Below, piece after piece: positions 37,386 to 38,925 of a DNA stretch of 64,000 bases. The notes beneath the pieces were generated by a model, which saw only the letters and a list, made by a program, of their open reading frames with translations, did not search any database and was not told the origin of the DNA. A program made the position numbers and the translations under genes. The first letter of the stretch is position 1. Each line of letters opens with the position of its first letter. Source of the stretch: Escherichia phage SpoonbillGilly; sequence record PP925828.1. One strand, given 5' to 3'.

Positions 37386-38165
37386 ATGAAAATCGAAATT
37401 CCAACACAATGTCCCTCTTGTGGTTCTAAGCTAGATCTTGTCAACGGGCAATTATTCTGTAGGAATAAGTCCAACTGTCCAGCGCAATCAAGTAAGTTAA
37501 TCGAGAACTTCTGCACAAAAATGAAGTTAAAGGGCTTTGGCCCGAAAACTATTGAGAAGCTGGAGCTGACTAAGATCTCAGAACTGTTTTACCTGACCGA
37601 AGAAGATTTGGTCGGAGCTGTGGGTAGCAAGGTTGCCGCTAAGTTGATTAGCGAGTTAAATACTAAGGTTCGCGGAGACATTGACTTTGGTTCAGTTCTC
37701 GGTTCTTTAGGAATACCTCTTATTGGAGAGGTTGCAGCAAAGAAACTGTCCCAAAATTGCACTAGCTTTCACGATGTGAAAGCTGACGGCAAGGCTGGAG
37801 AAAATTACAAAACTTGGCTAAATTCCCCACAAGGCAAGGATGTTATTGAATTACCGTGGAAATTCTCAACTGGTATTCGAGGTACTAAAGCTGATATCAT
37901 CATTACAGATGATTTAGTTGCCCAACCAAATGGAATCACGGTCTGTATTACCGGATCTTTGCAAGATTTTGCAAATCGAACGGATGCAACAAACTATTTA
38001 GAAAGTCTAGGATATACGGTTAAGAAGTCCGTTACCAAAGACGTCAAATACCTAATCTGTGAGGATGAATCAAAACGTTCTTCCTCATCTTATAAGAAAG
38101 CCGAAACGAATGGGATAGAAATCCTGTCGATTAAAGAACTATTGGAGAAAAATAATAATGTCTAA
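37386..38165 (+). CDS. lig: NAD-dependent DNA ligase, C-terminal (Zn-finger/HhH/BRCT) part
   Basis: Zn-finger CPSCGSKL...CRNKSNCPAQ at N-terminus, HhH-like G-rich segments, BRCT-like C-terminus; start at ATG 37386 with AAGGAAG RBS. Confidence 0.75.
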   Translation: MKIEIPTQCPSCGSKLDLVNGQLFCRNKSNCPAQSSKLIENFCTKMKLKGFGPKTIEKLELTKISELFYLTEEDLVGAVGSKVAAKLISELNTKVRGDIDFGSVLGSLGIPLIGEVAAKKLSQNCTSFHDVKADGKAGENYKTWLNSPQGKDVIELPWKFSTGIRGTKADIIITDDLVAQPNGITVCITGSLQDFANRTDATNYLESLGYTVKKSVTKDVKYLICEDESKRSSSSYKKAETNGIEILSIKELLEKNNNV

Positions 38166-38925
38166 ACTGAACTGGAACGTAGAAGGTGTAACCGAGTCTC
38201 TGAAAGCAAAAGCCACTGCTCTGGGTGTTGCTGTAATCTCTCAAGAACAAGTAGCTGCTATCGCTGCTGAACTGGCCACCGAGACTGGTAAAGACGTTAC
38301 CGCCCGCTCTGTTGGCTCTAAGCTGCGTAAAGAAGGTTTCGAAGTACAGAAAGCTAACGAAGTACAGAAATCCCCGTGGACTCCTGAGCAGGAAGCTGAA
38401 CTGGTTGATTTCCTGAACGCTCATGCTGGTCAGTATACTTACGCTGAAATCGCTGCTGCTGTAGCTGGTGGTCAGTTCGGTGCTAAGCAGGTACAGGGTA
38501 AGATCCTGAGTCTGGAAATGACTGCTTCTGTTAAGCCAACTGAAAAAGCTGCTGCTGTTCGTTCCTTCACTCCTGACGAAGAAACTGATTTCGTTAATCA
38601 GGTTGTTGCTGGCGCTACTATTGAAGCTATCGCTGCTCACTTCGGTCGCAATATTAAGCAGATCCGTGGTAAAGCTCTGAGCCTGCTTCGTGAAGGTCGT
38701 ATCGCTGCTATGCCGGTACAGGAAACTTCAAGTGCTAAAACTCGTGAAGATCTGTTAGAAGGTCTGGATCTGGCTAACATGACTGTTGCTGAGATCGCCG
38801 AGAAAACTGGTAAGTCTGAGCGCGGTGTTAAATCTATGCTGTCTCGTCGTGGTCTGGTTGCTAAGGACTATGATGGTGCCGCTAAGCGTGCTAAACTGGA
38901 TGCAAAAGCTGCGGCTGCTGAATAA
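38158..38925 (+). CDS. hypothetical protein with four tandem HTH-like repeats, optimised codons (255 aa)
   Basis: Four copies of about 25-aa unit (AIAAELATETGKDVTARSVGSKLRKEG; EIAAAVAGGQFGAKQVQGKILSLE; AIAAHFGRNIKQIRGKALSLLREG; EIAEKTGKSERGVKSMLSRRG). Confidence 0.6.
   Translation: MSKLNWNVEGVTESLKAKATALGVAVISQEQVAAIAAELATETGKDVTARSVGSKLRKEGFEVQKANEVQKSPWTPEQEAELVDFLNAHAGQYTYAEIAAAVAGGQFGAKQVQGKILSLEMTASVKPTEKAAAVRSFTPDEETDFVNQVVAGATIEAIAAHFGRNIKQIRGKALSLLREGRIAAMPVQETSSAKTREDLLEGLDLANMTVAEIAEKTGKSERGVKSMLSRRGLVAKDYDGAAKRAKLDAKAAAAE

Follow-up and report, generated by a model that had tools for sequence, protein, structure and literature searches.

The window analysed here, 64,000 nucleotides of DNA from Escherichia phage SpoonbillGilly (sequence record PP925828.1), carries a gene whose 255-residue product is built from four tandem helix-turn-helix (HTH) units and which, judged by its sequence, is the orthologue of D5, an already known, classical gene of phage T5. 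We consider it probable that D5 is an abundant early protein with multiple HTH units that binds phage DNA and coats or organises it beside the replisome. An earlier reading of the letters by a model (the sequence-only reading) had picked out the repeated architecture and proposed a multivalent DNA-binding protein, such as a transcription-switch or DNA-organising factor; it did not recognise the gene as one with a name and a literature.

The window protein and T5 D5 (T5.118) are of equal length and identical at 252 of 255 residues (99%), the substitutions from window to T5 being A25D, T41A and A206V, and the PHROG 323 family ('transcriptional regulator, D5-like') covers residues 1-253 with an E-value of 1.5e-71. 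At the DNA level the open reading frame (ORF) is 100% identical in Salmonella phages Stitch and S114 and matches 514 phage records, nearly all of them T5-like, under labels that vary among 'D5 protein', 'putative transcription factor' and 'DNA binding protein'. UniProt names the T5 protein (D5_BPT5) 'Putative transcription factor D5', and the NCBI name 'sigma-70 region 4 domain-containing protein' reflects its fourth unit only; NCBIfam has no model for D5, for its neighbour D3, or for the 234-aa and D11-like ORFs discussed below. In the T5 reference record, D5 is a protein that binds DNA, is needed for DNA replication and late transcription and has a role in expression shutoff, a description whose source, McCorquodale et al., 1979, is cited by title in PMC12630848. 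The role in DNA binding that the sequence-only reading had suggested is supported by this orthology; that all four units are used multivalently is something we infer.

An ORF of 169 aa on the minus strand of D5 (38131-38640) found no support and was taken for a shadow ORF, D5 being a gene with strong codon bias; an Rfam scan of 37000-39200 returned no RNA family, and the T5 'DNA binding protein' of the DRT4 defence paper proved to be ORF55, not D5.

The number of repeats given by the sequence-only reading held, and their size did not: where it had counted four units of about 25 residues, the repeating unit of D5 is a domain of about 50-60 residues, and the 25-residue stretch is its helix 2-turn-helix 3 core. 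Likewise, the EIA signature ascribed to each copy is exact (AEIA) in units 2 and 4 and reads AIA in units 1 and 3. Structure prediction, one of the checks proposed at the time, returned an HTH fold in four units: in an AlphaFold2 model computed on a 59-sequence alignment, with a mean predicted local distance difference test (pLDDT) score of 95, units 1-3 are three-helix bundles, and unit 4 consists of two HTH helices and a short hairpin, followed by a C-terminal helix (residues 240-254). The linkers between units are 10-25 residues long and conserved, and the protein as a whole has an isoelectric point (pI) of 6.8, contains 17.6% alanine and lacks cysteine.

Statistical support for the repeat depends on the level at which the units are compared. 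The homologue search yielded 726 proteins at E <= 0.001, of which 59, 50-81% identical to the query, were aligned (A1), and the protein was divided into residues 1-68, 69-130, 131-190 and 191-255 (R1-R4). As single sequences, only units 2 and 3 form a clearly significant pair in Smith-Waterman comparison with 1000 shuffles (score 54, z 7.4, 0/1000); units 1 and 4 (30/1000) and units 3 and 4 (27/1000) are marginal, and the remaining three pairs are not significant. At the profile level, all six pairs are significant, which bears out the internal repeat. Alignment of the A1 segments with hhalign gave P-values of 8e-9 for R2-R3 (96% probability), 1e-4 for R1-R2, 2e-4 for R1-R3, 3e-4 for R1-R4, 1e-4 for R3-R4 and 6.5e-3 for R2-R4, and every pair outscored all 60 of its column-shuffled controls (z 4.7-17.7).

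A possible objection is that these likenesses arise by chance in an alanine-rich helical protein, and that the resemblance to HTH domains is spurious. The alanine content and the three pairs without single-sequence significance could be cited in its favour, as could the tendency of small HTH profiles to cross-match many Pfam families below their cut-offs. This explanation, which we regard as very improbable, is already contradicted by the shuffle controls, which no pair failed, by the confident model, and by the matches to solved structures described below; moreover, an independent GcrA profile finds exactly four units, and orthologues with five units exist.

The repeat is old. Column identity is 55% within A1, as against 10-25% between units in A3, an alignment into which 88 D5-type units were merged, and each unit is far nearer to its counterpart in distant phages than to the neighbouring units of its own protein. 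Tandem Repeats Finder detected no DNA tandem repeat in the D5 gene, and the signs of duplication at the DNA level are faint, one example being the pairing of 38380-38409 with 38569-38598 (73% identity, spacing 189 nt). Because only traces of a DNA repeat persist and the units lie nearer to their distant counterparts, the quadruplication is ancient.

Among proteins of solved structure, the closest match of a D5 unit is the DNA-binding domain of GcrA from Caulobacter crescentus (PDB 5yiu, 5z7i and 7ye1; PF07750), followed by Myb, LUX, Timeless, Zeste and Tc3. The single D5 protein retrieved nothing significant from the PDB by sequence (best E 0.58, Myb21), and a Foldseek comparison of the whole model with the PDB gave no match at E <= 0.001 and no solved protein with the four-domain arrangement. 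The merged units of A3, searched against PDB sequences, gave Timeless (7.7e-4), a SANT domain (5.7e-3) and GcrA (0.02, with the whole unit covered). With the sequence of GcrA residues 1-49 confirmed against the PDB beforehand, each unit aligned with the GcrA domain from end to end in hhalign, with P-values of 1.8e-5 for R3 (78% probability), 4e-4 for R2, 1.6e-3 for R1 and 1e-2 for R4; unit 3 is thus the most similar to it. The A3 profile matched the GcrA domain family alignment at 93.9% probability (P 1.6e-7; z 16 and 0/100 against column shuffles), and the GcrA domain, used as a query on the D5 family profile, found exactly four non-overlapping sites, at residues 4-61, 73-123, 137-180 and 195-222.

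The likeness extends to individual positions. Like the D5 units, the GcrA domain is a three-helix HTH of about 45 residues that begins with an aromatic residue followed by T/S-x-E; its helix 2 contains an I-A pair and its helix 3 a G-K pair. The pair G38-K39 of GcrA aligns with G171-K172 of D5, and the lysines K55, K115 and K172 do not vary within the D5 family. The GcrA domain is monomeric and binds the major groove through helices 2 and 3, with K39 contacting the backbone (PMC5887438). The repeats of the Myb/SANT class (c-Myb R1-R3, SNAPc4, Cdc5/CEF1, Timeless) resemble D5 in being head-to-tail three-helix bundles in which the third helix is the recognition helix, and in starting with W/F-[ST]-x-E-E. 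Unlike D5, they carry three regularly spaced tryptophans, of which the D5 units keep only the first, as an aromatic residue (W6, W74, F137), and those known come from eukaryotes, where their targets are specific sites or G-quadruplex DNA.

The Pfam matches on D5 are all weak or borderline. Units 1 to 3 match HTH_33 (unit 1), Myb (unit 2) and HTH_23 (unit 3, at 151-184), the Myb family (PF00249) reaching 17.8 bits at residues 71-100, below its cut-off of 24.4. Sigma70_r4_2 passes its cut-off on unit 4 (residues 204-230, 29.1 bits against 25.7) and is found in 57 of the 59 relatives too. D5 thus has an HTH of the sigma-70 region 4 kind, and region 2, which binds the core and recognises the -10 element, has no Sigma70_r2 match in it at E up to 1. 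An exclusive assignment of the unit to GcrA rather than Myb was rejected, as 10 further multi-unit matches split into six with GcrA above its cut-off and four with Myb as the best family. On these comparisons, the place of the D5 unit among three-helix HTH domains is in the GcrA/Myb part, within which a single family is not assignable.

As for GcrA itself, D5 has three-helix DNA-binding domains of the kind found at the N terminus of GcrA, and it parts from the family elsewhere. GcrA consists of one such domain, a linker and a C-terminal zinc finger with the CCCH motif C-X14-C-X9-C-X2-H, which binds sigma-70 region 2 (PMC5887438), whereas D5 has four domains and no equivalent C-terminal one; since D5 lacks cysteine, it lacks the CCCH sigma-binding domain. 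Preferential binding of N6-methyladenine GANTC sites is a further trait of the GcrA family; the residues with which GcrA contacts bases (N34, I37, H41 and R42) are replaced in the D5 units. The Pfam GcrA family (gathering score 26.9 bits) gave no match for the window protein at E up to 1, and 14 of the 59 relatives gave weak matches (best E 4.2e-5). By these tokens of its sequence, without Pfam match, CCCH domain or base-contacting residues, D5 is not a member of the GcrA family.

This mixture of likeness and difference bears on the main rival to a DNA-coating role, namely that D5 is a site-specific transcription factor whose four HTH units read a composite operator at T5 promoters, repressing early and activating late genes in a GcrA-like manner with the sigma-70 holoenzyme. 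GcrA, whose DNA-binding domain the D5 unit most resembles, is a monomeric cofactor of sigma-70 that reads 7 bp in the major groove (PMC5887438), unit 4 exceeds the Sigma70_r4_2 cut-off, late transcription is absent in D5 mutants by the account of the T5 record, and the T5 early-to-late switch is still stated to have no known mechanism (PMC7472727). We nevertheless hold such a promoter factor to be unlikely: the absence of cysteine removes the zinc finger through which GcrA meets sigma, and the base-contacting residues are not kept. In addition, replication also requires D5, and the gene sits within the replisome module in all relatives examined.

The expression signals of the gene weigh on the same question. 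The D5 gene is the second of an operon headed by ligB, whose stop codon overlaps the D5 start (ATGTCTAA). The operon ends in an intrinsic terminator and is preceded by two near-consensus sigma-70 promoters, in a region that is 98% identical to the T5 region annotated P-K28b/P-K28a; the promoters themselves are identical to those of T5. Codon usage was scored as the fraction of optimal E. coli codons, in the established set of Ikemura, in 73 ORFs of at least 90 aa. D5 ranks highest of the 73, at 0.83, followed by D3 at 0.80; the D11 orthologue (46332-47105, 257 aa), labelled 'single strand DNA binding protein' in the T5 record, scores 0.77, the median is 0.49, and ligB, the operon partner of D5, has only 0.43. 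The high expression predicted by the sequence-only reading is therefore supported by two promoters, a ribosome-binding site and the top codon score. Because strong early promoters are combined with the best codon usage in the window, D5 is likely to be made in stoichiometric, not catalytic, amounts, and such extreme optimisation, on a par with the D11 orthologue, speaks for these amounts and not for a regulator.

Gene order tells of the surroundings in which this protein would act. In the window, in Stitch and in T5, D5 follows the ligase genes and precedes the DnaB-like helicase (ligB-D5-D6 in T5), and the order ligA-ligB-D5-DnaB-primase-PolA holds even in environmental phages with a D5 of only about 50% identity. 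The window differs from T5 in host range, which is that of Salmonella Epseptimavirus phages such as Stitch and S114.

D5 has also come to attention from the side of bacterial defence. A preprint of July 2026 (10.64898/2026.07.11.737809) reports that D5 triggers retron-Kva2, a type IX retron, that AlphaFold 3 (AF3) predicts binding of D5 to the msdDNA stem-loop, and that the retron complex is remodelled by D5 in vitro, all of which speaks for nucleic-acid binding in vivo. An escape phage in that study carried D5 G53D, W74*, V149I and G232D together with D2 E76Q, and a second escaper was mutated in D3 (10.64898/2026.07.11.737809). On our domain map, the unit 1 recognition helix contains G53, and G232 comes immediately behind the recognition helix of unit 4. 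In the literature searched, this preprint is the only work to treat the fold of D5, as 'a helix-turn-helix motif' and not as four units. The W74* mutation, which places a stop after unit 1, is hard to square in a viable phage with the need of replication for D5; a mixed phage population or suppression seems likely.

The model that we favour, DNA coating or organisation by an abundant early protein, would operate as follows. One D5 molecule could occupy successive major grooves with as many as four recognition helices, or hold two duplexes together, and tandem units would give binding of high avidity and low sequence specificity. D5 would then coat or organise replicating phage DNA close to the replisome, the genes for which lie on either side of its own. 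The altered template, or else some contact with RNA polymerase, would account for its effects on early shutoff and on late transcription.

Several observations weigh against this model. The protein is neutral overall, and its units carry net charges of 0, -4, -1 and +1 (units 1 to 4), compared with +5 for the GcrA DNA-binding domain, as counted from its sequence; with a net negative charge on units 2 and 3, some units may leave DNA untouched. The predicted template modelling (pTM) score of the D5 model is only 0.59, so the arrangement of the units relative to one another is not predicted, and the T5 early-to-late switch is described in print as unexplained (PMC7472727).

The acidic units could instead mean that D5 is mainly an adaptor, in which one or both of the basic units 1 and 4 bind DNA and the SANT-like units 2 and 3 bind proteins, tethering parts of the replisome or of RNA polymerase. 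The distribution of charges fits such a division, the Myb/SANT-like matches come from units 2 and 3, the retron escape substitutions in or beside recognition helices (G53D and G232D) fall in units 1 and 4, and the gene has a conserved position beside DnaB and primase. On the other hand, the invariant Gly-Lys pair of the recognition helix, the counterpart of the K39 with which GcrA contacts the backbone, is retained in units 2 and 3, unit 3 is the nearest of all to the DNA-binding domain of GcrA, and D5 is not known to have a partner protein. An adaptor therefore seems to us a poorer explanation still than a promoter-specific factor, and binding along phage DNA the better account of the protein.

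A second protein of the same region shares the D5 unit. The sequence-only reading had pointed to a 136-aa product nearby with a single copy of the repeat; this ORF is T5 D3 (T5.113, 'DNA binding protein'), with 133 of 136 residues identical, and the relation claimed for it is moderately supported. BLASTP aligns D3 residues 38-67 with D5 residues 35-66 (41% identity, E 0.008); a D3 family profile of 16 sequences aligns its residues 4-68 with D5 residues 3-67 (P 1.4e-4) and, against D5 unit 1 alone, exceeds all shuffle controls (z 8.6, 0/60); and a hidden Markov model (HMM) of the unit, run over the 365 six-frame ORFs of the window, matched D3 alone besides D5 below E 0.01 (E 0.0038). The D3 model (pLDDT 72) has helices at 9-23, 31-45 and 50-60, with boundaries nearly identical to those of D5 unit 1, and the N-terminal domain of D3 is, with moderate support, a paralogue of that unit. 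Beyond it the model shows a disordered linker rich in Ser, Gly and Lys (68-86) and a second three-helix domain (87-136), which is highly conserved, contains the motif DKLTGKAAAHLAEA and matches no family. The escape mutation in D3, G85D (10.64898/2026.07.11.737809), lies in this linker beside the nearly invariant G84.

Units of the D5 type also occur in other numbers. When a profile of the unit was run over 1.84 billion representative proteins, 2637 matched at E <= 0.001, with four-unit D5-like proteins predominating and arrays of 6-13 units also present. One top match of that scan, P0424 with 22 stretches, was discarded as a translated satellite-like repeat. Five-unit orthologues of D5 exist: P0316 is followed by DnaB, primase and PolA, as in the T5-like replication module, with an unsplit ligase about 2 kb upstream. 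Among metagenomic proteins, which resemble D5 in carrying tandem arrays of the same unit type, P0341 combines six GcrA domains with the full C-terminal part of GcrA (Pfam GcrA 187 bits), its cluster-mate P0439 sits on a phage-like contig, and P0346 has eight units; arrays of 8-9 units without any other domain exist, and the D5 unit profile retrieves P0341/P0439 and P0346 at E-values of about 1e-31 to 1e-32.

These relatives invite a broader speculation, which we advance with considerable doubt. D5 and D3 may belong to a wider class of GcrA-type tandem arrays, of one to about nine or more units, that lost the sigma-binding domain or never had it, with the number of units varying among orthologues; T5 D5 would then be the missing DNA-side part of the early-to-late switch, acting as GcrA does at promoters of the sigma-70 holoenzyme and touching the polymerase by a different contact.

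Some genes around D5 and D3 deserve comment in their own right. The mechanically called ORF of the DnaB-like helicase (507 aa, 38957-40480) begins within the hairpin of the D5 terminator; its true start probably lies near 39008-39014, downstream of a GGAG at 39003-39006, and the start annotated in Stitch is equivalent to 39014. The 234-aa ORF at 33772-34476 is called D2 'helicase' both in the T5 RefSeq record and in PHROG 3611; inspection by eye found no Walker A motif in it, and its HTH matches are weak. The D2 helicase of Wong et al. 2013 has Walker A/B and superfamily 2 (SF2) motifs (PMC3632103), a description fitted by the 970-aa ORF at 30574-33486, which carries GTGKT and DECD and is annotated 'replication origin binding protein'. 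Because Walker and SF2 motifs occur in the 970-aa ORF and no Walker A was seen in the 234-aa ORF, the D2 label looks misplaced, and papers that cite 'D2', the retron preprint included, may be ambiguous. The 102-aa ORF at 35625-35933 is annotated 'transcriptional regulator'; since its counterpart in an environmental relative (L003 5810-6118) carries Pfam PC4 (PF02229), it is probably a PC4-like single-strand DNA-binding protein of T5-like phages.

Table 1. Features of the D5 locus, its neighbour D3 and relatives; positions are those of the window unless another record is named.
Feature	Residues	Position	Strand	Description
Sigma-70 promoter upstream of ligB-D5		37234-37262	+	TTGACA-17-TATACT, 11/12 matches; position of T5 P-K28b
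Second sigma-70 promoter		37327-37355	+	TTGCTA-17-TATAAT, TG before second hexamer, 10/12 matches; position of T5 P-K28a
ligB		37383-38165	+	NAD-dependent DNA ligase subunit B; heads the operon
Ribosome-binding site		38144-38147	+	GGAG, 10 nt upstream of the D5 ATG; annotated in phage Stitch
D5 gene		38158-38925	+	ATG start, TAA stop, 255 aa; four tandem three-helix HTH units
Unit 1	3-62	38164-38343	+	Helices 11-22, 29-43, 49-58 (AlphaFold2)
Unit 2	73-120	38374-38517	+	Helices 76-88, 95-101, 109-118 (AlphaFold2); net charge -4
Unit 3	136-180	38563-38697	+	Helices 139-150, 155-162, 166-178 (AlphaFold2)
Unit 4	204-239	38767-38874	+	Helices 210-217, 221-231; hairpin 234-239
Intrinsic terminator closing ligB-D5 operon		38943-38971	+	13-bp stem with 8 G-C pairs, then T run
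D3 gene		34831-35241	+	136 aa; N-terminal domain like D5 unit 1, disordered linker, second three-helix domain
Relatives with other unit numbers		L008 6001-6852; L007 6001-7227		Proteins P0294, P0316, P0341, P0346, P0377

The finding itself is an ordinary one: the feature was rightly noticed, and the gene was already annotated. What the present analysis adds is the domain map, with four GcrA/Myb-type units and no sigma-binding domain, together with the paralogy of D3, the codon ranking, and the relatives with other numbers of units. D5, long known as a gene of T5, is now also a newly reported retron trigger. A map of four GcrA/Myb-type units, two of them acidic, supplies the constructs and mutants for a study of DNA binding by D5, and the same constructs would serve the questions of which unit the retron senses and whether D5 contacts RNA polymerase.

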